NCBI RefSeq assembly: GCF_000092105.1
Contig: NC_014148.1
Location: 2,250,001 to 2,282,000 of the forward strand
Length of the DNA: 32,000 bases
Origin: Planctopirus limnophila DSM 3776
Lineage (GTDB): Bacteria; Planctomycetota; Planctomycetia; Planctomycetales; Planctomycetaceae
Direction of reading: 5' to 3'
Shown here: positions 19,114 to 29,389 of the stretch, piece by piece
Position numbering within the stretch: the first letter of the stretch is position 1
Layout: the number at the start of each line of letters is the position of its first letter
The notes under the pieces: model-generated
What the model saw: the letters and a program-made list of their open reading frames with translations, nothing else
What the model was told of the DNA's origin: nothing
Databases searched by the model: none
Translations under genes and position numbers: made by a program

Positions 19114-20037
19114 CTAGAGCACCTTTTCGATGGTCTCTCGCAGAACGCGGCCGCTCGATTGCAGAGCAATCTTTTCCTTAGGCCAGAGATCCACTTCAAC
19201 GACCCCCAGAACACCTTTGCGTCCCACAATCGTTGGAACGGAAATCGCCACATCACGCAGACCGTAAGCCCCGTTTTGTAACGACGACACGGGCATCACA
19301 CGACGCTGATCAAGTGCAATACTGTGAATCACATCGGCAATCGATACACCGACTGCAAAGCCGGCGCCGCCTTTTTTCTTCAGCATTTCCGCACCGCTGT
19401 TGCGTGCCCGCTTCTCAATCTCGGTGATGAGTTGCGGCGTAACGCCTGGGTACTTGTCGACGGGCAGGCCGCCAATCTGGCCCAGTGACCAGATCGGCAC
19501 CATGCTATCGCCATGCTCACCATAAATGGTGACATCGACTTGAGTTGGCGGGACGGAAAGCTGCTGTGCCAGCAAGCTGCGCAGGCGTGTCGTATCGAGT
19601 ACGGTTCCTAATCCGATGACTTGCTTCGGTGGCAAACCCAGTTCTCGAATGGCCAGGTAAGTCAGTACGTCGACGGGGTTGGAGACCACAAACAGAATGG
19701 CGTCTGACTTCGGGCCCGCTTTCTTGATATCTCCCAGAATTCCGCGGAAAAGTGCCACGTTCCGGTTGATCAGATCCAGGCGGCTCTCATCGGGCTTACG
19801 CCGCAGGCCGGCGGTGACGACGATGACATCGCTATTGGCACAATCAGCCATTGTACCCGCATGAATCGACTGATCAGCCACCAGGCTGGCACCATGCAGA
19901 ATATCCAGTGCATGACCATCGGCGGCTTCAGGGTTCACGTCGATCATGACGATCTCGCGAACGATCTTTCCGAGTTGCAGTGCAAACCCGGCACATGACC
20001 CGACCAGCCCGCCGCCACCGATGATGCTGACTTTCAT
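19114..20037 (-). CDS. LDH/MDH-family NAD-dependent 2-hydroxyacid dehydrogenase (Arg at the LDH/MDH discriminator position)
   Basis: The start is placed at MKVSIIGGGGLVGS (Rossmann GxGxxG); the track ORF extends to 20115. The substrate loop is TAGLRRKPDESRLDL and the catalytic His is in YGEHGDS. It lies 93 nt downstream of the aldolase on the same strand. Confidence 0.85.
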   Translation of the reverse strand: MKVSIIGGGGLVGSCAGFALQLGKIVREIVMIDVNPEAADGHALDILHGASLVADQSIHAGTMADCANSDVIVVTAGLRRKPDESRLDLINRNVALFRGILGDIKKAGPKSDAILFVVSNPVDVLTYLAIRELGLPPKQVIGLGTVLDTTRLRSLLAQQLSVPPTQVDVTIYGEHGDSMVPIWSLGQIGGLPVDKYPGVTPQLITEIEKRARNSGAEMLKKKGGAGFAVGVSIADVIHSIALDQRRVMPVSSLQNGAYGLRDVAISVPTIVGRKGVLGVVEVDLWPKEKIALQSSGRVLRETIEKVL

Positions 20038-20130
20038 GGAACTGACTTTCGCTGAGAAACGATGCATTGAAGACCACGCCCTTCGGAAGACCTCAGGGAC
20101 GTGCCACGCGATCAAACGGTAACAAAAAGA

Positions 20131-21051
20131 CTACTTTTTGAGGGCGGCCATGACCTGCTCGGTGATCATCTTCACCAGCATTTCGGTATCGACGGGTGCT
20201 GCTGCAGCTGATGGAGCTGCGGCTGGTGCAGGAGTTGACTTCTGTCGTTCGAGATAGCCTGGATAATACGGGGCTGGCTCGAAAGCGGCGGGTTGTGGCT
20301 GAGCGTCTTTGTAGCCTTCGCGGAACGCACTGTTGCCGCAAAGATCGCAATTCTCGACATGGAAGCGGGGATCATCAAAGCCGAGCTTCTTCTTGAGATC
20401 GAGAAGCTCAACCGACTCTCGCTCGTTGAGATACTCGACACGGCCCAATTGCTTGGAAAGCAGCAGAATCCGGCAGTAAGCATCGAGGATCTCGGTCTTC
20501 CAGTAAGCTTCTTCGAGGTTCGCACCGAAGCTGACTGTGCCGTGATTGGTCAGAATGATTGTGTTGGTACCCTTGAGGAAGGGCACCACTGTGTTGGCAA
20601 AGGCATGCCCACCGGGAGTTTCATAAGGGGCGATGGGGACTTCACCCATGAAGACTTCGATTTCTGGCAGAATGCACTGCGGGATGGGTTCGCGAGCTAC
20701 TGCAAAGGCTGTGGCATGTGGTGGATGGCAGTGCACAACAGCCTTCACATCGGGACGATGCTTCATGATGGCCAGGTGGAGCAGAATCTCGCTGGTGCGT
20801 TTTCGCTTACCGGCAATCTGGCCGCCTTCAAGGTCAACCGCGCAGATATCATCGGGAGTCATGAACCCCTTACAGATCATCGTGGGGGAACATAGCACTT
20901 CGTTTTCGCCGACTCGGATCGAAATGTTCCCATCGTTGGCGGCGGCAAAGCCTTTGTTGTACACCCGGCGACCAATTTCGCAGATGAGCTCTTTGAGCTT
21001 GCGGTCGTTGATGCCCGAATTCCATTTGTTGGCAGTGGTCATGAGAAACAT
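20131..21051 (-). CDS. Class II (fuculose/rhamnulose-1-phosphate-type) aldolase with about 90-aa C-terminal extension ending in an encapsulation-peptide-like helix
   Basis: The aldolase core has GNISIRV and the zinc-ligand block VVHCHPPHATAF, plus TNHGTVSFG. It is followed by a Pro/Ala linker (STPAPAAAPSAAAAPV) and a terminal amphipathic helix DTEMLVKMITEQVMAALKK. Confidence 0.9.
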   Translation of the reverse strand: MFLMTTANKWNSGINDRKLKELICEIGRRVYNKGFAAANDGNISIRVGENEVLCSPTMICKGFMTPDDICAVDLEGGQIAGKRKRTSEILLHLAIMKHRPDVKAVVHCHPPHATAFAVAREPIPQCILPEIEVFMGEVPIAPYETPGGHAFANTVVPFLKGTNTIILTNHGTVSFGANLEEAYWKTEILDAYCRILLLSKQLGRVEYLNERESVELLDLKKKLGFDDPRFHVENCDLCGNSAFREGYKDAQPQPAAFEPAPYYPGYLERQKSTPAPAAAPSAAAAPVDTEMLVKMITEQVMAALKK

Positions 21052-21066
21052 CCGTTGAAAATGATC

Positions 21067-21094
21067 GTTGTGGGTTGTGAGTTGTAAGTTGTGA
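21067..21094 (-). repeat. 4 x 7-nt tandem repeat (plus strand GTTGTRR; mRNA sense YYACAAC) in the aldolase leader
   Basis: Plus strand reads gttgtgg gttgtga gttgtaa gttgtga with exact 7-nt periodicity. It sits in the 49-nt spacer between the BMC-P stop (21101) and the aldolase start (21051). Confidence 0.8.
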
Positions 21095-21100
21095 AGAAAA

Positions 21101-21412
21101 CTATGTTTGTGTCAGCTCAATCTTGTCGAGGAGGCAGGCGTTGTAAGCATCGAGTGGTTTGGAATCGGGATGAAAGGGAGCTGAAGCTTCTGCTCCTTCA
21201 CTGATGGCAATGATGTCCCCCGGGCTTGCTCCCAGTTCGTCGTAAACAATGATGGCCTCTTCTCGTCCGCGAACAGTCATCGTCGTGTCGCGATGAATCA
21301 CAGCAGCAAGGCCCTCAGCCAATAGTGGAACTGCCACAATCCAGGTGCCACCCAGCACTGTGGGATCGCATTTTGACAAAGTGACCCGGCCAATCACTTC
21401 GGCTAATCTCAT
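21101..21412 (-). CDS. BMC-P (EutN/CcmL family) pentameric vertex protein, paralogue 3
   Basis: 103-aa ORF MRLAEVIGRVTLSKCDPTVLGGTWIVAVPL..., with a typical EutN/CcmL N-terminus and length. Its start overlaps the upstream ORF stop as ATGA (21409-21412). Confidence 0.85.
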   Translation of the reverse strand: MRLAEVIGRVTLSKCDPTVLGGTWIVAVPLLAEGLAAVIHRDTTMTVRGREEAIIVYDELGASPGDIIAISEGAEASAPFHPDSKPLDAYNACLLDKIELTQT

Positions 21413-22269
21413 GGTGCCACTCCTGTTCCTGAGGGGATCCCAGTACGGACAATGGCTTGCACCAGATTTCGCAGCTCAATGAATGTTTTGAGTGTCGGGT
21501 CAATGACATAAACATTGGGGCTGAAGTCGCTGCTCGTGAGCAACACCTCGGCGAGGGATGATACGACAGCAGCACGTATCGCTGGCGACCGGTTCAGATC
21601 GCAGGCCCGCTTGGCTGCTGAGCGTTCAATCAGAATGGCCCCATGAGCTTCGGCTTTATGGATCGCTCCGGAGACGAACTCCTGGGTTTCAGTTCCTGTG
21701 CCAAGAATCTTGACTTGCGATACTGTCGCGGCTGTCTGGGTACTATTCAAAAAGGTCTTCACATTCGCTGTGGCAGAGACCACACCGAGGACCCACTTCG
21801 CAGCCATTGAGGATGGATTTGAAGCTTTGTTAGAGGAGGCATTGCCTGCGGCTTTCGGCAGCAATGTGGAATTGGCAGGGGAAAGACCACGTTCAAGAAC
21901 CACATGATGATCGCGGAGCCAATCCTTTGCGGCTGGCGTCACGATCGACTTTGCGGAGGCAAAAACTCTAGCAGCACCACAAGCGAGCCTGGAGAGTAGC
22001 TCGGCTGTAATCACCGCTTCCGTGAGTGTCACACTGGAGCCAAGTGAGCTGGCAACGGCTGGAGCCGTCACTAATGGTTTCGAGACGGAAGTTGCTGGGA
22101 AGGCGTGATTGAGGCTGGCCACCGTTTCTGGCGGCAAATGAATCCTGCTGACGGAAGCCACAGGCTGATCGATCGAAGCTGTTGATTCAGGACGTACGGC
22201 GCTAACAGCTCGGCTGTGAAGCTGAGCCAGCACGTTCCGGACGATCTGATCGACAAGTTCGGTGGACAT
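21409..22269 (-). CDS. Unknown-function protein with encapsulation-peptide-like N-terminus (candidate BMC cargo/assembly factor)
   Basis: 286-aa ORF. The N-terminus MSTELVDQIVRNVLAQLHS matches the amphipathic motif on the aldehyde dehydrogenase and PduL. It is followed by a Ser/Ala/Pro/Val-rich region and a roughly 140-aa alpha/beta-looking C-terminal domain. It is translationally coupled to the downstream BMC-P. Confidence 0.65.
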   Translation of the reverse strand: MSTELVDQIVRNVLAQLHSRAVSAVRPESTASIDQPVASVSRIHLPPETVASLNHAFPATSVSKPLVTAPAVASSLGSSVTLTEAVITAELLSRLACGAARVFASAKSIVTPAAKDWLRDHHVVLERGLSPANSTLLPKAAGNASSNKASNPSSMAAKWVLGVVSATANVKTFLNSTQTAATVSQVKILGTGTETQEFVSGAIHKAEAHGAILIERSAAKRACDLNRSPAIRAAVVSSLAEVLLTSSDFSPNVYVIDPTLKTFIELRNLVQAIVRTGIPSGTGVAP

Positions 22270-22313
22270 GGGGACTTTGCTGGTCGTTTATAAAAAAGTT
22301 GATTGTCAGCTGA

Positions 22314-22338
22314 ATTGGCAGGCAGGAGCCTGCCCTAC
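22314..22338 (-). repeat. 25-nt hairpin element, copy 1 (attggcaggcaggagcctgccctac)
   Basis: 7-bp GC-rich stem ggcaggc/gcctgcc with a 4-nt loop. On the mRNA strand it lies 15 nt downstream of the BMC-P stop codon (22354). It matches 22651-22675 at 24 of 25 positions. Confidence 0.85.
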
Positions 22339-22353
22339 AAATCCGTTTTGAAC

Positions 22354-22611
22354 TCAAGGATCGACGAGGCCGAGTGACATAAAGCGAATCGGGCTGTCCT
22401 CCGCCTTCACAGTCTCTCGAACAGTCTTTCCATCGGAAGTGATGACCACCAGATCGCCCTGGGCAGCTCCCAGACCATCAATGATCAGTTGGGGGGCACC
22501 ATCGGGTTTGTCGTTGACACCCAAAGGCTGGGCAATCAGCAGTTTCCATCCCTGAAGACTGGGATGCTTGACCGTGGAAGTTGCTCGTCCAATGATTTTT
22601 GCCACTTGCAT
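22354..22611 (-). CDS. BMC-P (EutN/CcmL family) pentameric vertex protein, paralogue 2
   Basis: 85-aa ORF MQVAKIIGRATSTVKHPSLQGWKLLIAQPL...GDLVVITSDG, the canonical EutN/CcmL pattern. Confidence 0.85.
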   Translation of the reverse strand: MQVAKIIGRATSTVKHPSLQGWKLLIAQPLGVNDKPDGAPQLIIDGLGAAQGDLVVITSDGKTVRETVKAEDSPIRFMSLGLVDP

Positions 22612-22650
22612 CCCCGTCTCCTTTCTATGTGTTTCTAAGTGATCGAGCTT

Positions 22651-22675
22651 GATTGGCAGGCGGGAGCCTGCCCTA
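22651..22675 (-). repeat. 25-nt hairpin element, copy 2 (attggcaggcgggagcctgccctac)
   Basis: Same stem as copy 1, with one substitution in the loop. On the mRNA strand it lies 17 nt downstream of the aldehyde dehydrogenase stop codon (22693). Confidence 0.85.
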
Positions 22676-22692
22676 CGGTAAAACCTTACGAA

Positions 22693-24114
22693 TCAGATGA
22701 CGCGGAGACTGTCGACCAGCACACAGCGGCGGCTGCGTGTGAAAGTGAGTGGGTTGGTCACCCCTTCACCTGTCGGCGTCGCAATGCTGAAGCTGAGATA
22801 GCCTTCGCCACCTAGCCCAAGACCAGCCATCGAGGGGCCATTCTTGATGAAGAGCGTCGTATCGACAGCTTTTCCCATTTTGGTCATCGTCTGCACATTG
22901 CGCGAGTGAATCAGACTGGTGTGCCGGAAACCATGTTCGTATTCGAGAGCCAGTTCAATCGCCTGATTGACATTCTTGGCCCGGACAAAGGGGACGAAGG
23001 GCATCATCTGTTCTTCGGGGACGAACGGGTTGTTGACGTCGGTTTCGCCAAAGAGAAGCTGTGTTCCTGCGGGAACTCTCACACCGATGAGTTCCGCGAG
23101 CTTCGTAGCATCAGAACCAACGAGGTCGCGATTGAGGTGCCAGTGGTCGCCCGGCTTTGTAGGAGGTGTGAAGGCAAGTTTGGTGAGAGCATCGACTTCA
23201 CGGGCCGAGAGTTGATAACCACCTTGCTGCCCCATCCGCACCATGAGCGTGTCAAAGATCGACTCGACTGCGAAGACTTCCTTCTCGCCAATGCAGAGGA
23301 GGTTGTTGTCGTAAGCAGCTCCCTTGACGATCGACTTCGCGGCATTTTCGAGGCAGGCCGTCTCATCAACGACAACAGGCGGATTGCCGGGACCCGCGAC
23401 GACTGCCTTCTTGCGGCTTTCGAGAGCAGCACGAGCCACTGCAGGGCCACCCGTAACGCACAACAGCTTGACACCACGATGTGCAAAGATGGCGGCGGCG
23501 GTTTCCAGCGTGGGTTGTTCGATGATGGTGATCAGATTCTCAAGACCTGTGGCTTTATGAATCGCCTTGTTAAAGCGACGAACACCTTCGCAAGCAATCC
23601 GAGCACCACTGGGGTGTGGGTTGACAATCAGCGTATTGCCGCTGGCCACCATGTTGATGACATTGCCAGCCAATGTCGGTAGAGAGTGCGTGACCGGGGT
23701 GATGGCACCAATGACACCAAAGGGAGCGTATTCCACAATGGTCAGGCCATGATCGCCGCTGAAGGCATCGGTTCGCATGAACTCGGTGCCAGGCACCAGC
23801 TTGATGATCTTCAGCTTTTCGATCTTGTGATCGAGGCGGCCAATTTTCGTCTCGTTGAATTCCAGTGTGCCAAGTTCTTCGGCCTGGGAATCGCAGATCT
23901 GGCGAACACATTCAATCGCTTTGCGGCGGGCGTCCATCCCGGCATCCGAAAGCTTTTCAAACGCTTCGTTAGCGGCAGCAACGGCCTGATCGACATCTTT
24001 GAAGACACCCCAGTCTCCATCACGAGTGGCTGCTGATTTCTCGGCGCCACCCTTGTTGAGCTGAGCGAGAACTTCCTGCACCACCTGACGGATGGCTTGT
24101 TCTGTCGCTTGCAT
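22693..24114 (-). CDS. CoA-acylating aldehyde dehydrogenase (PduP/EutE-like) with N-terminal encapsulation peptide
   Basis: 473-aa ORF. The catalytic Cys context [15 protein letters not shown] is as in PduP/EutE. The N-terminal amphipathic helix [21 protein letters not shown] is followed by a linker. Confidence 0.9.
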
Positions 24115-24249
24115 CGATTCGGTCTTTCCTATCTGGCTTGGATCTTCTCAGCGAATGAGAGCAAAAGTCTTATCGCTGCGGATGATTCATGGATTTGTGT
24201 TTGAAACCTGGTGAACCATGAGGAGGTTCCATTCTGGAGTTGTTATGGC

Positions 24250-24765
24250 TTACTCAGTGGAAATCCCTCGATAGGCCATCGACTCCTGACAGATTTTTCG
24301 AAACTGCTGGACTTTGGATTGTGTGGGAAAATGAATCATCATCGTGAAGACAGTGAGTGCGGCTACGATGGGACTGATGATCGAGCCTGCCATCAGCCAG
24401 GCCACAAGATTCAACATGCCTGCACCTTCAACGACGGCAAGACGAACAATGCCTGAGGTGAGGAAATTCTGAGCCATCCAGGGCTCATCGATCGTTTCCG
24501 CCTTGTTCAAAGCCCCTTTAAGAATCTGCGCCGGGAGCACAAACGAAAGCACAATCGCACTACAACCCATGATGGCTGCAATCAGAGTCAATGGATTGCC
24601 GAACAGGTCTCCATCAAACTTCAACTCACGAATGATGGTAATTACTACGGCAAAGACCACCGGCCCCATGATGAGTGCCAGCGTAATGATCTGCAGATTT
24701 CTCAAGGCTGCGTCGAGTGTCGTTACCTGTGTCGCCTCAGATTTTGCGGACAAAGATTTGTTCAT
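24250..24765 (-). CDS. Integral membrane protein, 4 predicted TM helices, unknown function
   Basis: 171-aa ORF with four hydrophobic stretches (IITLALIMGPVVFAVVITII; LTLIAAIMGCSAIVLSFVL; IVRLAVVEGAGMLNLVAWLMAG; IISPIVAALTVFTMMIHF). Its start overlaps the stop of the upstream BMC-P as ATGA (24762-24765). Confidence 0.6.
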   Translation of the reverse strand: MNKSLSAKSEATQVTTLDAALRNLQIITLALIMGPVVFAVVITIIRELKFDGDLFGNPLTLIAAIMGCSAIVLSFVLPAQILKGALNKAETIDEPWMAQNFLTSGIVRLAVVEGAGMLNLVAWLMAGSIISPIVAALTVFTMMIHFPTQSKVQQFRKICQESMAYRGISTE

Positions 24766-25124
24766 GACCTGGACTCCTCAGTGGCTGAGGATTGATCGGC
24801 AAGTCTGGTGCTAAAAACGATCTTCCCTTGAATCTGGACGACATCGATCAAACCGATGATCGCGCAGTCAATGGGAAGAGGTTTGGTTGAAGGAGTGAAG
24901 CGTGCTGATGAACCCTGTACGATCAACACGACCTGACCTTCGCCAGCACCGACGGTATCGACCGAGATGAACGTGCGACCTGTGGAGACAAGTTGGGATT
25001 CAGCCCTGCCATCGACCATCTGTTCCTGGATGCGCAGCGGCTCGACCACCAGCAGCTTCTGGCCGACCATGGAGTCGACCTTCTGCGTGGAGACCAGACT
25101 TCCGGTGACGCGTGCGAGGAACAT
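24762..25124 (-). CDS. BMC-P (EutN/CcmL family) pentameric vertex protein, paralogue 1, with C-terminal tail
   Basis: 120-aa ORF MFLARVTGSLVSTQKVDSMVGQKLLVVEPL...GEGQVVLIVQGSSAR. It carries an extra polar tail, STRLADQSSATEESRS. Confidence 0.85.
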   Translation of the reverse strand: MFLARVTGSLVSTQKVDSMVGQKLLVVEPLRIQEQMVDGRAESQLVSTGRTFISVDTVGAGEGQVVLIVQGSSARFTPSTKPLPIDCAIIGLIDVVQIQGKIVFSTRLADQSSATEESRS

Positions 25125-25176
25125 GGTGGATTCAACTTAAAGAGAACGAGGAGCGACTGCCCATGGAGTACATGGA

Positions 25177-26364
25177 CTAGGACTTTGAAAGAAGTTCGGC
25201 TGTCTGTCGGGCGACGACCAATTCTTCATTGGTCGGGATGACCCAGAGTTCAATCTTGCTTGTCGGAGTCGAGAACTTGCCTTCAGTGCGAAGCTTCTCG
25301 TTGATCGCCAAATCGATTTCGATCCCTGCGAAATCCATCTGAGAACAGACGTCTTTGCGAATTCGGCTACTGTTCTCGCCAATTCCACCGGTGAAAACGA
25401 TGGCATCAGCACCATTCAGGACAGTCAGATAAGCCCCGATGTACTGACGGATCGACTGGGTGAAAACTTTGAGTGCCAGTTCAGCTCTTTCGTGGCCATT
25501 AGCGGCGGCCTGTTCAAGGTCGCGCACATCGCCCGAGAGACCACTGAGTCCTAACAGTCCACTTTTATTCGCAAGAATGTCGAGGATTTCAGGCAACGTC
25601 TTGCCGGTTTCTTGAATCAGCACAGGGAGGGCAAAGGGATCAAAATCGCCCACCCGGTTGTTGTGAGGCAATCCGGTCTGCGGGCTCATTCCCAATGTAT
25701 TGCCTTGCGACTTCCCATCACGAATGGCACACAGCGAATTGCTTCCGCCCAAATGGCAGGAGATGACCTTCAAATCCGATCGGCCTTTGAGTTCAGCAAT
25801 TCGCTGACTGATAAACCGATGGCTGGCACCGTGAAACCCCCAACGCTGAATACCATATTGCGTCTGCCATTCATGAGGCACCGCATAGGCCCGTAATTCG
25901 GGTGGAGCGGTCTCATGGAAAGCCGTTTCGAGAGCAGCAACCTGAGGCAAATTGGGGAACGCCCCCTGCAGCTGTCGCATGGCTTTGGCATAGGGAGGGT
26001 TATGAGCCGGTGCAATCGCTGCATACCGCTCTAACCCGGCGAGCAAAGCATCATCGACGTGTCGAACACCAGAAAGTGCGCCCGCCATCACTGCTTTGAA
26101 GCCGATACCATCCAGTTCAGATGCATCCTTGAGGCAACCTGTTTCAGGAGCTGTGAGTTGCTCGAGACAGAATTTGACTGCCACCGCATGATCCGGAACG
26201 TGTGCTGTCACTTCGTCTTTGAATGAGCCAATTTCAACAGTACACCGACTTTCCGGCCCGCCAATACGATCAATGCCACCACGCGCCAACTGCCGTTCGG
26301 TGGTGAGATCGAATAAACGGTATTTGAAGCTCGTGGAGCCGAGATTGGCGACCAAAATCTTCAT
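25177..26364 (-). CDS. ackA: Acetate/propionate-family kinase (acyl-phosphate to acid + ATP)
   Basis: The start is placed at [18 protein letters not shown] (ASKHA N-terminal motif); the track ORF extends to 26412. Other motifs are [18 protein letters not shown] and [11 protein letters not shown]. No encapsulation-peptide-like extension at either end. Confidence 0.93.
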
Positions 26365-26445
26365 CGGGAAATCCTCGTGTTGAAATCCGCGGCTGCCTTC
26401 AATCTGTGGCAATTTTCGGGTGTGTGGAGGTCATTCGTTCGGAAT

Positions 26446-26468
26446 CACTGCTGGACAAGCCAGCAGTG
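26446..26468 (-). promoter_or_regulatory. Intercistronic stem-loop 3' of the shell-gene pair
   Basis: 9-bp perfect stem cactgctgg/ccagcagtg with a 5-nt loop. On the mRNA strand it lies 36 nt downstream of the second BMC-H stop (26504) and 82 nt upstream of the acetate kinase start. No U-tract follows it. Confidence 0.6.
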
Positions 26469-26503
26469 GCACCCAGAGGGAGACGATCCCACCCAAGACA
26501 ACC

Positions 26504-26944
26504 CTAGATGAACTGTTCGAGGAGCGACTTTTCCGGGCGGGCAATGACATGCGCGCTCACCACTTCACCGATTGCGGCAGCGGCTTGTTGACCGGCATCG
26601 ACCGCAGCTCGAACGGAGCCCACATCGCCACGAACAATCGTGGTGATATAAGCGTTGCCGATCTGAATCTGCTTGACGAGTGTGACGTTGGCGGCCTTCA
26701 GCATGGCATCGGCTGCTTCGATCTGGGCGACAAGCCCTTTGGTCTCAACGAGACCGATTGCTTCACCATTCATGAGAGAAGTTCCAGAGACAGGAGACGG
26801 AAGTTGTTCAACAGAATTCGCAACAGGAGTGATCACTGAACTAGCAGCAGCTTTCTCCCGAGGACGCTTCTCCGCAGACGAGCGTGATTTTTCAACCGGT
26901 CGTTTGCTGGACGTCTTGGGCATGACCACCTCATTCACTGACAC
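26504..26944 (-). CDS. BMC-H (Pfam00936) hexameric shell protein, possibly with a 57-aa basic N-terminal extension
   Basis: The C-terminal 89 aa ([30 protein letters not shown]...[13 protein letters not shown]) form a canonical BMC domain. The ORF stays open for a further 57 codons upstream ([36 protein letters not shown]...). The alternative start is the ATG at 26773. Confidence 0.85.
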
Positions 26945-26962
26945 GCAGGCATGTGCCGGGTA

Positions 26963-27253
26963 TTACTTGCTGATGGGCTTTGGCAGAATGGCAGCCAGTT
27001 CTTCGTGTGGGCGTGGAATCACTTGAACACTGAGAACTTCGCCAATTTTGCTCGATGCGGCAGCGCCGGCATCGACAGCAGCTTTCACAGCAGCGACATC
27101 GCCGACCACGAAAGCCGTAACAATACCACTGCCGACCTTTTCCCATCCGACAAGCCGGACGTTGGCCGACTTGAGCATGGCGTCGATCCCTTCGATCATC
27201 GTAACGAGACCCTTGGTTTCGAGCATGCCGAGCGCTTCGATCGATCCAGCCAT
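26963..27253 (-). CDS. BMC-H (Pfam00936) hexameric shell protein
   Basis: 96-aa [66 protein letters not shown], a textbook PduA/EutM-like BMC domain. Confidence 0.9.
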
Positions 27254-27300
27254 GAAAACTTCCTCTCAAGAAATGGAACTGCGAGAACCTATGAAACCTG

Positions 27301-27325
27301 CCAGCCGGAAAACACTCCCGGCTGG
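27301..27325 (-). promoter_or_regulatory. Intercistronic stem-loop 5' of the shell-gene pair
   Basis: 8-bp stem ccagccgg/ccggctgg with a 9-nt loop, located in the 87-nt spacer between the pduL stop (27341) and the first BMC-H start (27253). Confidence 0.55.
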
Positions 27326-27340
27326 ATGTATTCCTTCACA

Positions 27341-28093
27341 TTATTTTGAATGGCAACCACAACCGACTGGCTTAACTAGCTCCACCTTCGTGGCATGCGA
27401 GAGATCAACTGCGTTGCCTTCATCCGTATCAATATGAACTTCCAGTTTGACGTCTTTATCTTCACGAACCGTGACATGTTCGAGAGTGGTGGTGCAGGGG
27501 CCGGAATGGATTTTGAGATCCATTTCATCGCCATTTTTCACGCCGTAGTAAGCACAGTCAGCCGGGCTCATGTGGACATGGCGCATAGCGCGAATGACAC
27601 CCGACTTGAGTTCCACCACGCCTGCGGGGCCAACCAGAACGCAACCGACCGTGTCATGGTGATCCCCACTGATCCGCACCGGGAGATCAATCCCGAGCGA
27701 AATACCATCGGTGAAAGCCAGTTCGACCTGCGAAGCATTGCGACACGGGCCTAGCACACGAACATCAGGAATCATCCGGCGACGAGGGCCAAAGATGGTG
27801 ACGGTCTGCTTGGCGGCGTAGTAGCCATCCTGATAAAGCCACTTCATAGGCTCGAGTTTGACACCTTTGCCAAACAGAACTTCAACATGTTCTTCTGTGA
27901 GATGCACATGCCGGGCAGAGATATTGACGACGAGGGGGTTAGGAGGCCCGCCAGCCGAAGAGACGGAACCCGAGGAGGTGGTCGCTCCCGCCAATTGCCT
28001 AGTGAGTACGGCTCGAACCACTCGCTCGACGTCAGCACGAGAGATATTGCCTGCAACCACAGAATCAGACGACATACGCGAACTCTTTCTCAC
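27341..28093 (-). CDS. pduL: PduL-type phosphotransacylase with N-terminal encapsulation peptide
   Basis: 250-aa ORF with the duplicated PduL motifs [19 protein letters not shown] and [23 protein letters not shown]. The N-terminal helix [18 protein letters not shown] is followed by a Ser/Gly linker. Confidence 0.9.
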
Positions 28094-28121
28094 TCCAGCG
28101 TTTGATTATCACGGGTTTGAA

Positions 28122-28871
28122 TCACGCAATTCGCAGTTCAATTCCCAAGTCTTCAATCCGCTTTCGCCAATCTTCGGGAATCCCTTCGTCTGTCACAATT
28201 TCATGAACACGGTCGAGTGGACAAAGTGGGGAGAGGGCTGCTTTTCCAAACTTCCGACTATCAACCGCCAGCACCACTCGTTCAGCGGCATCAATCATCC
28301 GCCGCTCGGCCTCAACGAGGAGGGTGTTGCTGTTGAACAAGCCTTTCTCCGTCACGCCACCGACACTGAAAACCATGCGAGGGACCTGCAATTGCGATAA
28401 CGCCAAATTCAGGAGCGGGCCTAAAGTCACACCTGTTTTGGGATGCAGATACCCTCCTAAAAAAATCAATTCCACACCCGGGCTGTTCACCAGCAAATTG
28501 GCAATCGCCAGGGAATTGGTCACAACTTGCAGTTCTTTGCCAATCAAGGCACGAGCCACCTCAAGCGTTGTCGTTCCCCCATCGAGCAGGACTGTTTCAC
28601 CACTTCCTATCGTTTCCGAGATCGAACGAGCAATTCTCTGCTTCTCGACCAGAGAGGTCACACTTCGCTCTTCCAGAGAAACAACCGATTCACCGACATA
28701 GGCAGCCCCGCCTCGTGTGCGGCGAACCTGCCGAATTCCGTCAAGATATTCCAAATCCCGCCTCAGTGTTGACTCGCTGACCCCGGTTTTGGTCGCAAGC
28801 TCATGAAGCGATATAAAGCCTTTTTCTTCAATGAGTTCGAGCACATGTCGACGGCGTTGATCCAAAAGCAT
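28122..28871 (-). CDS. DeoR-family transcriptional regulator (HTH + sugar-phosphate-binding DeoRC domain)
   Basis: 249-aa ORF. The N-terminal HTH is RRRHVLELIEEKGFISLHELATKTGVSESTLRRDLEYL. The C-terminal DeoRC region has LDGGTTTLEVA and VVTNSL. It lies 28 nt upstream of pduL on the same strand. Confidence 0.9.
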   Translation of the reverse strand: MLLDQRRRHVLELIEEKGFISLHELATKTGVSESTLRRDLEYLDGIRQVRRTRGGAAYVGESVVSLEERSVTSLVEKQRIARSISETIGSGETVLLDGGTTTLEVARALIGKELQVVTNSLAIANLLVNSPGVELIFLGGYLHPKTGVTLGPLLNLALSQLQVPRMVFSVGGVTEKGLFNSNTLLVEAERRMIDAAERVVLAVDSRKFGKAALSPLCPLDRVHEIVTDEGIPEDWRKRIEDLGIELRIA

Positions 28872-28990
28872 GGTTCAAATCATCCCTCGCCACACCTACC
28901 CAGACATCCTGACCGTTAAACTGCTCGGTCTAGGATGTCATAAGAATAGGTCGAACTTCTATCGCACTCAAGCAGGAACATATCACAAAG

Positions 28991-29015
28991 TGCAATTATT
29001 TTCCAAATTATTGCA
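28991..29015. promoter_or_regulatory. A/T-rich imperfect palindrome upstream of deoR (candidate operator/promoter element)
   Basis: TGCAATTATTT-TCC-AAATTATTGCA, with 10 of 11 arm positions complementary. It sits about 120 nt upstream of the deoR start, in the most A/T-rich part of the 518-nt intergenic region. Confidence 0.35.
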
Positions 29016-29389
29016 AAACATGCCATCCTGTTGAAAACACCAACTCACACATTCACTGGCATCGACAAGTTGCTCCAGCAGAATGAAAAGAACTTGCGGA
29101 AGGTCTGTTCAGGCAAGGAGTGCCGATATTCCCGGAGCGACTAGGCGCTGCCAGCCAGATCATTGTTCAGAGAGTTTGGCTGACAGCAGATATGACTCAC
29201 CAACGCGAAGAGACTGACCTGAGACTCAAAGATTTCATTAGAAGAGCGGCGACTGGGAGGTAAGTCTCAGATAATACGCCTTTTTTTTGCAGCGTTGCAG
29301 CGTCTTGATGTCAGGGCCTTCAGGAAGGTGCGACCCACTTTGACAAAACGTACTAAACGGTGGAGAAAGCGATTCTGATTGGCTAACCG

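Follow-up and report, generated by a model that had tools for sequence, protein, structure and literature searches.

In the 32,000-nucleotide stretch of Planctopirus limnophila DSM 3776 analysed here (contig NC_014148.1, positions 2,250,001 to 2,282,000 of the forward strand; called the window below, with positions counted from its first letter), a 171-aa open reading frame (ORF) on the minus strand (24250..24765) lies in the middle of an operon for a bacterial microcompartment (BMC) of the Planctomycetes-Verrucomicrobia (PVM) type. We find that this ORF, which fills the slot named pvmI, is a real gene under purifying selection, and that its product is a divergent representative of a PVM component that is known but uncharacterised. 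A named but functionally undescribed mid-operon gene leads in this way to a large family of small membrane proteins that lacks annotation, comprises at least 682 clusters and is marked by an invariant buried glutamate. Our proposal, held tentatively and at rather less than an even chance, is that PvmI may be an accessory protein of the cytoplasmic membrane which, as a homo-oligomer, lets a small solute pass in a proton- or ion-linked manner.

The window operon contains the same 13 genes, in the same order, as the P. limnophila cluster pvmABDEGHIJKLMNO, in which the pvmI slot has already been named (PVM passages of PMC11958385). Because the two orders match, the 171-aa ORF can be assigned to that slot; that it is pvmI, homologous to the P. 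limnophila PvmI of the literature, we infer from gene order and naming only. Since the slot already has a name, the window PvmI does not represent a new kind of system. Literature searches for pvmI and for Plim locus tags found no function, and the passages of PMC4207490, PMC11958385 and PMC8217296 that deal with PVM are likewise silent on one. As an optional gene of a studied organelle, pvmI is a clear genetic target, and genetic tools exist for P. limnophila (PMC11958385). The PVM microcompartment drives the turnover of fucose and rhamnose by Planctomycetota and Verrucomicrobiota in the degradation of algal polysaccharides (PMC8217296; PMC11685898). If the role of PvmI is only that of accessory transport, the result is a useful annotation rather than a conceptual advance.

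pvmI is a real gene under purifying selection

The ratios of nonsynonymous to synonymous substitution rates (dN/dS) for pvmI are 0.20, 0.12 and 0.11 in comparisons involving two close metagenome relatives, which are 95% and 89% identical and have the same gene order. An exhaustive phmmer search retrieved 682 representative clusters at E<=1e-3; the best 150 of these are all 113-195 aa long and nearly all align over most of their length. Against a family hidden Markov model (HMM) built from 151 members, the window protein scores E 5e-52. A single-sequence search of a word-indexed database, which returned only two near-identical matches, had suggested that the protein was an orphan, a status overturned by the phmmer result; a profile search of the same database with the family alignment returned 21 proteins. 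The listed family members are unnamed or called 'hypothetical protein' in every source.

The divergence of the family is considerable. Apart from two relatives, the window protein is 25-39% identical to its homologs. For the copies in related PVM loci the figure is 25-35%, compared with 62-84% for the neighbouring aldehyde dehydrogenase (AldDH), and the mean pairwise distance is 1.9 for PvmI versus 0.38 for PvmH and PvmJ, the products of the two adjacent genes.

That the ORF is spurious and sits in an intergenic spacer might be entertained on the grounds that the window, with about 53% G+C, holds many shadow ORFs of 100-280 aa and that the 171-aa protein matches no Pfam family. This explanation is contradicted by the low dN/dS values (0.11-0.20), by family HMM matches of E 1e-29 to 1e-53 across 52 loci, by the 682 clusters, by a conserved Shine-Dalgarno sequence and by a confident AlphaFold2 (AF2) model; the conservation data already refute it, and we regard its probability as negligible.

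Junction with pvmH

The initial annotation had described a 171-aa ORF with four hydrophobic helices whose start overlaps, as ATGA at 24762-24765, the stop of a 120-aa BMC-P gene, and which lies between that vertex gene and an aldehyde dehydrogenase gene. All of this was borne out: the ORF and its helices by the ORF list, hydropathy and AF2, the overlap by the sequence, and the position by the Pfam matches of the neighbours.

On the minus strand, the pvmH/pvmI junction reads ...GAGGAGtccaggtcATGAac, the ATG of pvmI occupying 24765-24763 and the TGA of pvmH 24764-24762, a 4-nt overlap (24762..24765). A GAGGAG hexamer resembling a Shine-Dalgarno sequence (24774..24779, minus strand) ends 8 nt 5' of the ATG and falls in the last codons of pvmH, where it encodes the Glu-Glu of the tail TEESRS. 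M1 is the sole in-frame start before the first transmembrane (TM) helix, the stop-to-stop frame beginning at 24777. Comparison of the 14-nt strings upstream of pvmI in relatives shows GGAGG-like motifs just ahead of the start, encoding Gly/Glu-rich PvmH tails.

Of 50 related loci, 12 have a 4-nt overlap between pvmH and pvmI, 4 have an overlap of 1 nt and 32 have a gap of 3-89 nt; the remaining two are L054, where the genes overlap by 8 nt, and L061, where they are separated by 695 nt that contain a second family-like ORF. In 49/50 loci the two genes overlap or lie close together, and the Shine-Dalgarno sequence is conserved. Judged by the stop/start overlap, pvmI is probably translationally coupled to pvmH in the window, and often so in its relatives.

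A predicted four-helix membrane protein with an invariant glutamate

PvmI is predicted to be a four-helix membrane bundle with both termini inside, followed by a C-terminal helix (all segments are encoded on the minus strand). TM1 covers about residues 24-46 (24628..24696) and carries the motif R..QII..AL..G...F; TM2, about residues 58-80 (24526..24594), ends at the conserved P78; TM3 spans about residues 102-124 (24394..24462); and TM4, about residues 126-147 (129-146 at 24328..24381), runs into an F-P-T motif with an invariant P147. In Kyte-Doolittle plots with a 19-residue window the four peaks are 2.73, 2.47, 1.61 and 1.98, so that TM1, TM2 and TM4 are strong, whereas TM3 is a weaker hydrophobic segment that contains R108 and E113. 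The AF2 model, built from 21 sequences, has a pLDDT of 85.9 and a pTM of 0.78 and places helices at residues 17-46, 58-88, 94-126, 130-144 and 149-166; the last of these (24268..24321) directly follows TM4 and would be cytoplasmic.

The orientation follows from the distribution of basic residues. Lys plus Arg averages 8.9 in the N-terminal tail, loop 2 and C-terminal tail, against 1.0 in loops 1 and 3, and the trend is the same in 101/101 sequences, the C-terminal tail being rich in Lys and Arg across the family. Because the skew holds in every sequence, both PvmI termini are probably cytoplasmic, and the topology check that had been called for thus yields four helices in an N-in/C-in arrangement.

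The residue that stands out is E113 (codon at 24427..24429), a Glu in 101/101 sequences located about eight residues into TM3 from the cytoplasmic side, in a segment that reads AVVEGAGMLN in the window and ALLEGAAFFN in the family consensus. Conserved positions are R22, Q25, I26, I27, A30, L31, G34 and F38 in TM1; A110, L112, E113, G114, A115, F117 and N119 in TM3; and F146, P147 (101/101) and T148 after TM4. G34, A110, G114 and P147 are invariant or nearly so, and the window protein, which shows full-length homology to the slot proteins of related loci, keeps E113, G34, F38, A110, G114 and P147. Position 126 is acidic (E or D) in 78% of sequences and Ala in the window. TM1 and TM3 contain small-xxx-small packing motifs, while conservation is lowest and length varies most in the N-terminal tail (9-78 residues) and loop 2 (15-46 residues). 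With no conserved His or Cys in the family, a heme or metal site is unlikely. A buried carboxylate is the typical mark of small membrane proteins that handle protons or ions, as in EmrE (E14), the ATPase c-subunit, MotB and ExbD.

Conservation and loss of pvmI in related PVM loci

We scanned 80 Planctomycetota loci (L001-L080), collected in an AldDH-seeded genome scan and not including the P. limnophila locus itself, with the family HMM. Matches were found in 52/80, with one ORF in each of 51 loci and two adjacent ORFs in L061, always directly upstream of the AldDH gene and in the same direction. Full-length copies reach E 1e-29 to 1e-53, and two copies truncated at contig ends score less well. 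Where enough upstream sequence is available, 49/69 loci (71%) have a homolog in the same slot, so conservation at this position, on which the initial annotation had made its case depend, is found in most related loci. Carriers span Schlesneria to Thalassoglobus and Planctomicrobium and include the isolates Thalassoglobus neptunius KOR42 (L068) and Planctomicrobium sp. SH527 (L075); the HMM scan did not find pvmI in Planctomicrobium sp. SH668 or in the loci of Pirellulales and Gemmataceae.

The gene is also missing in near relatives of carriers (L001 versus L002-L005; L013 versus L011/L014; L055/L057 versus L051/L053), and in the checked loci that lack it no more than about 215 nt, and in most cases no more than about 115 nt, separate pvmH from pvmJ. 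This pattern among near relatives implies repeated loss, or gain, of pvmI and shows that the organelle does not depend on it. The presence of pvmL, another gene of the operon, is uncorrelated with that of pvmI. In L086, a PVM-like locus, pvmI is found on the other side of the AldDH gene, again adjoining a BMC-P gene, which shows that it stays inside the locus after rearrangement.

The slot between pvmH and pvmJ seems to collect small membrane proteins. One clade (L022:5000-6005, L034:810-1415) has two additional ORFs, paralogous to each other, that separate pvmI from the AldDH gene; their products, of about 150 aa and 134 aa, end in DRR.ELLLKYHD and DDRLQRLLLKYYE, and the 134-aa one has two TM segments by hydropathy. 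In L018, a different small membrane ORF is located just upstream of the AldDH gene. The second, weak family-like ORF of L061 (2609-3217, E 2.4e-06), which immediately precedes the regular pvmI homolog, may have arisen by tandem duplication.

Family members outside BMC loci

The PvmI family is not BMC-specific. Members outside BMC loci occur in Planctomycetota and Bacteroidota: a homolog from Chryseobacterium soli and two more are found in unrelated genomic contexts, and Mucilaginibacter and Flavobacteriales contribute further members. A metagenome sample of 49 members with the LLEGAAFF motif, gathered from eight seed sequences and hence biased to members with the canonical motif, contains 19 that are flanked by pvmH and/or pvmJ and 30 without a BMC gene in the available flanks, 9 of the 30 having at least 700 nt upstream and at least 500 nt downstream. 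PVM-linked and non-BMC members share the same conserved positions, and no PVM-specific motif distinguishes them, the cytoplasmic parts included. In a neighbour-joining tree of 101 members the PVM and non-PVM proteins are interleaved, although this tree is unreliable at a mean distance of 1.9.

The neighbours of non-BMC members include planctomycete PSCyt2/PSD1 and DUF1501 proteins, the tail of a cation-chloride cotransporter, thymidine kinase and MutS. The only ones that recur are a beta-carbonic anhydrase, found twice, and a PALP-CBS enzyme, found at two places (L111; L118 with its near-duplicate L117), and these are too few to build on. The beta-carbonic anhydrase genes (L136:288-950, L090:717-1454) adjoin the family members in one case with a same-strand overlap and in the other divergently; their number suggests an excess over chance, though there are only two cases.

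A possible role at the cytoplasmic membrane

We propose that pvmI would share a transcript with the PVM microcompartment genes, in the window with translational coupling as well, and that its product would act in the cell membrane rather than in the shell. There a PvmI homo-oligomer could form a proton- or ion-linked path for a solute that the active organelle makes or consumes. Lactate and 1,2-propanediol are end products of the PVM pathway, and the candidate solutes, at the level of a guess, would be lactate with H+, 1,2-propanediol, or lactaldehyde that has escaped. Lactaldehyde is the sequestered aldehyde of this pathway (PVM passages of PMC4207490). The initial annotation had already considered a small-solute channel, an idea that is plausible in that it appears compatible with the invariant intramembrane Glu and with the occurrence of the family outside BMC loci; the presence of the same motifs in those members suggests a generic membrane activity rather than shell binding. 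The repeated loss of pvmI would be explained if PvmI is helpful and not essential.

Several observations weigh against this proposal. comparisons with Pfam, NCBIfam and the PDB, by Foldseek too, brought up no transporter or channel that PvmI resembles in sequence or fold; four helices alone cannot form a pathway, and the oligomer is putative; the solute is a guess; pvmI is absent from 20/69 loci, so that the organelle can do without it; PvmI evolves at about five times the rate of the neighbouring proteins, which fits a loosely constrained role; and the 30 neighbour proteins of non-BMC members are heterogeneous, with no consistent metabolic theme.

Some of the same facts would fit a general membrane-housekeeping or stress protein that is independent of BMCs, serving for instance membrane or ion homeostasis, and that is useful when the flux of aldehyde and acid is high or is merely tolerated in PVM loci. 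The family is widespread outside BMC loci, in scattered contexts and with identical motifs, PvmI evolves fast, and its gene has been lost repeatedly. However, the same slot is kept across lineages whose AldDH proteins are only 62-84% identical, the gene is under purifying selection, and it stays in the locus after rearrangement; together these three observations favour a PVM-linked benefit over neutral hitch-hiking. We therefore consider the housekeeping explanation possible but rather doubtful.

Alternatively, PvmI might serve as a small accessory subunit in some larger membrane complex whose genes lie elsewhere (a transporter, respiratory complex or sensor, for example) and in which the Glu would pair with a basic residue of the partner. 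Such a role would suit a protein of this size with an invariant buried Glu and with small-xxx-small packing in TM1 and TM3, no partner-independent activity is evident, and a histidine kinase gene lies just beyond the operon; yet no partner gene recurs in the neighbourhood in either PVM or non-PVM contexts, and we judge this explanation improbable.

A hypothetical docking of the microcompartment on the membrane

A different idea put forward in the initial annotation was that PvmI is a membrane tether with the polar C-terminal tail of the coupled BMC-P as its partner, and this version of a tether found no support. PvmH tails are short and variable, and they are indistinguishable between loci with and without pvmI: that of L001, which lacks pvmI, resembles that of L008, and those of L055/L057, also without pvmI, resemble those of L051/L053. 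The 120-aa PvmH with a long tail is common only to the window and two near-identical relatives. The tails end in Gly/Glu-rich sequence (GGK, EGGKK and SGGGK; TEESRS in the window), and much of the polar tail is explained by its end being the translation of the pvmI Shine-Dalgarno sequence. The suggested co-evolution analysis with the 120-aa BMC-P, carried out as a mirror-tree comparison of 39 loci, gave a partial distance correlation of 0.00 for PvmI-PvmH when controlled for PvmJ, the lowest of all pairs (0.12 for PvmI-PvmK, 0.07 for PvmI-PvmG), which is weak negative evidence because PvmI distances are near saturation.

More generally, PvmI might bind the shell through PvmH or another shell protein and so dock the BMC on the cytoplasmic membrane. 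In keeping with this, pvmI always adjoins a BMC-P gene, with overlapping stop and start codons in 16/50 loci and gaps of 3-89 nt in 32 of the other 34; coupling would favour co-production of PvmI and PvmH; pvmI is again beside a BMC-P gene in L086; and both termini, the long loop and the C-terminal helix appear to face the cytoplasm. Adjacency to a BMC-P gene is, however, easily reached by chance, as 3/13 genes of the locus are BMC-P genes. The variable PvmH tail is of the same kind with and without pvmI, and the partial correlation between PvmI and PvmH is the null value given above; the cytoplasmic N-tail and loop 2 are the most variable in sequence and length; no motif sets the PVM-linked proteins apart from the non-BMC ones; 30/49 sampled members have no BMC neighbour; and pvmI is lost repeatedly between near relatives. 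Taken together, these points make a tether decidedly improbable. A further step, in which PvmI docks the fucose/rhamnose BMC on the cytoplasmic membrane via a shell protein and forms a conduit between organelle and periplasm, amounting to a membrane-coupled metabolosome, is in our judgement very improbable. Candidate docking partners other than the PvmH tail would be the conserved body of PvmH, PvmK, PvmM and the BMC-H proteins.

The surrounding PVM operon

By Pfam and ORF calls, the window holds a complete PVM-type BMC operon of 13 co-directional genes (19114..28871, minus strand), which we named from the shared gene order. In the direction of transcription these are pvmA, encoding a DeoR regulator (28122-28871); pvmB, a PduL-type phosphotransacylase (27341-28093); pvmD and pvmE, two BMC-H proteins (26963-27253 and 26504-26944); pvmG, the acetate kinase AckA (25177-26412); pvmH, the 120-aa BMC-P vertex pentamer (24762..25124; EutN_CcmL, E 3.3e-27); pvmI; pvmJ, an acylating aldehyde dehydrogenase (22693..24114; Aldedh), 135 nt downstream of pvmI; pvmK, a BMC-P (22354-22611); pvmL, a 286-aa protein without a Pfam match (21409-22269); pvmM, a BMC-P (21101-21412); pvmN, a class II aldolase (20131-21051); and pvmO, a dehydrogenase resembling lactate or malate dehydrogenase (LDH/MDH; 19114-20115), all on the minus strand. 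A gene for a histidine kinase lies just outside. The window AldDH is 83-84% identical to those of Schlesneria metagenome-assembled genomes, which places the organism close to Schlesneria within the Planctomycetaceae, and 62-84% identical across L001-L080.

A scan of the minus strand from 21000 to 29200 found no terminator-like site within the operon. The sole promoter-like match on the operon strand near its start is located at 29007-29034 (minus strand), upstream of the DeoR gene; such sites are no more numerous in the window than in shuffled sequence.

Other features of the operon and of related loci are noted in passing. The protein in the pvmL slot starts with MSTELVDQIVRNVLAQL, similar to the start of AldDH and to a segment near the N-terminus of PduL; the common stretch may be an encapsulation-peptide-like helix, which would suggest that PvmL is cargo. 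PvmL has one weak NCBIfam match (TIGR02536, eut_hyp, E 0.022). The pvmE ORF (26504-26944) starts at a GTG and encodes 146 aa, in which a stretch of about 60 residues rich in Ser, Pro and Lys precedes the BMC domain (62-137); this extension may be an artefact of ORF calling, since translation from an internal Met at about position 58 would yield a BMC-H of ordinary size, about 89 aa. Several PVM loci contain a small inserted gene, each at a different point (L052:1049-1432, L070:5545-5919, L084:10238-10603), that looks like a mobile or selfish insertion; the L084 product matches PF05635 (23S_rRNA_IVP), and the L052 and L070 ORFs, which have the motif '...GPGLLES.YE...' in common, are presumably of the same kind. 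In L082 (8602-10030), the AldDH match is in two pieces in different frames, the gene calls are fragmentary and the LDH-like gene is called at 728 aa, so the locus may be frameshifted or decaying, or else wrongly assembled.

Comparison with known families and systems

The remote homology searches that had been proposed detected no relative of PvmI in any of the four resources used. The window protein matches no Pfam family at E<=0.01, and 72 family members compared with Pfam at E<=1 gave only noise (DUF2975 in 10/72, best E 0.01; DUF4271 in 7/72). An NCBIfam scan gave no significant match, and neither did a PDB sequence profile search (best E 0.31); a Foldseek comparison with the PDB returned 0 matches at E<=0.001, the best having an E of 1.0 and a TM-score below 0.4.

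Particular identities were considered and rejected. PvmI is not an MIP protein (PduF) or EutH, having no corresponding Pfam match and only four TM helices. It is not a member of the small multidrug resistance (SMR) family of EmrE, as it lacks a Multi_Drug_Res match, has its Glu in TM3 and is 171 aa long. LrgA/CidA holin-like proteins and MAPEG are not among its Pfam matches, and there is no PDB fold match. Nor is it a BMC shell protein or encapsulated cargo, being an integral membrane protein without a BMC or EutN domain whose terminal helices are found equally in non-BMC members. The similarity of TM2-TM3 to the ATPase c-subunit (E 0.39-1.2 in the PDB profile search, E 0.059 in NCBIfam) is compositional and at noise level.

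With regard to the placement of BMCs, the nearest comparison for a tether is the McdAB system that positions carboxysomes, which is soluble, nucleoid-based and of the ParA type; to our knowledge, systems of this kind are the only ones that place BMCs in the cell. Literature searches turned up no membrane-anchored BMC tether.

SMR proteins such as EmrE have about 110 aa and an essential buried Glu and function only as oligomers. PvmI resembles them in being small and having four TM helices and a buried Glu, but differs in carrying that Glu in TM3 instead of TM1, in being about 60 residues longer and in its long cytoplasmic loop. From the hairpin of the F-type ATPase c-subunit it differs in topology and length, the buried carboxylate of the c-subunit being paralleled by the PvmI Glu only in the weak TM2-TM3 profile similarity.

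The closest functional counterparts would be PduF, a propanediol facilitator of the MIP family, and EutH, an ethanolamine permease, both with more than four TM helices, to which PvmI may be comparable in role, not in ancestry. The initial annotation had viewed a membrane protein in such an operon as odd, which overstates the case, given that transporters of the cell membrane are regular ancillary genes of BMC loci (BMC catalog, PMC8217296). Like PduF and EutH, PvmI would be a cell-membrane protein encoded in a metabolosome locus and accessory to the organelle rather than essential, its role being the inferred one set out above; unlike them, it has no sequence or fold relationship to these transporters and is encoded amid the genes for shell proteins and core enzymes, apparently coupled to a vertex gene.

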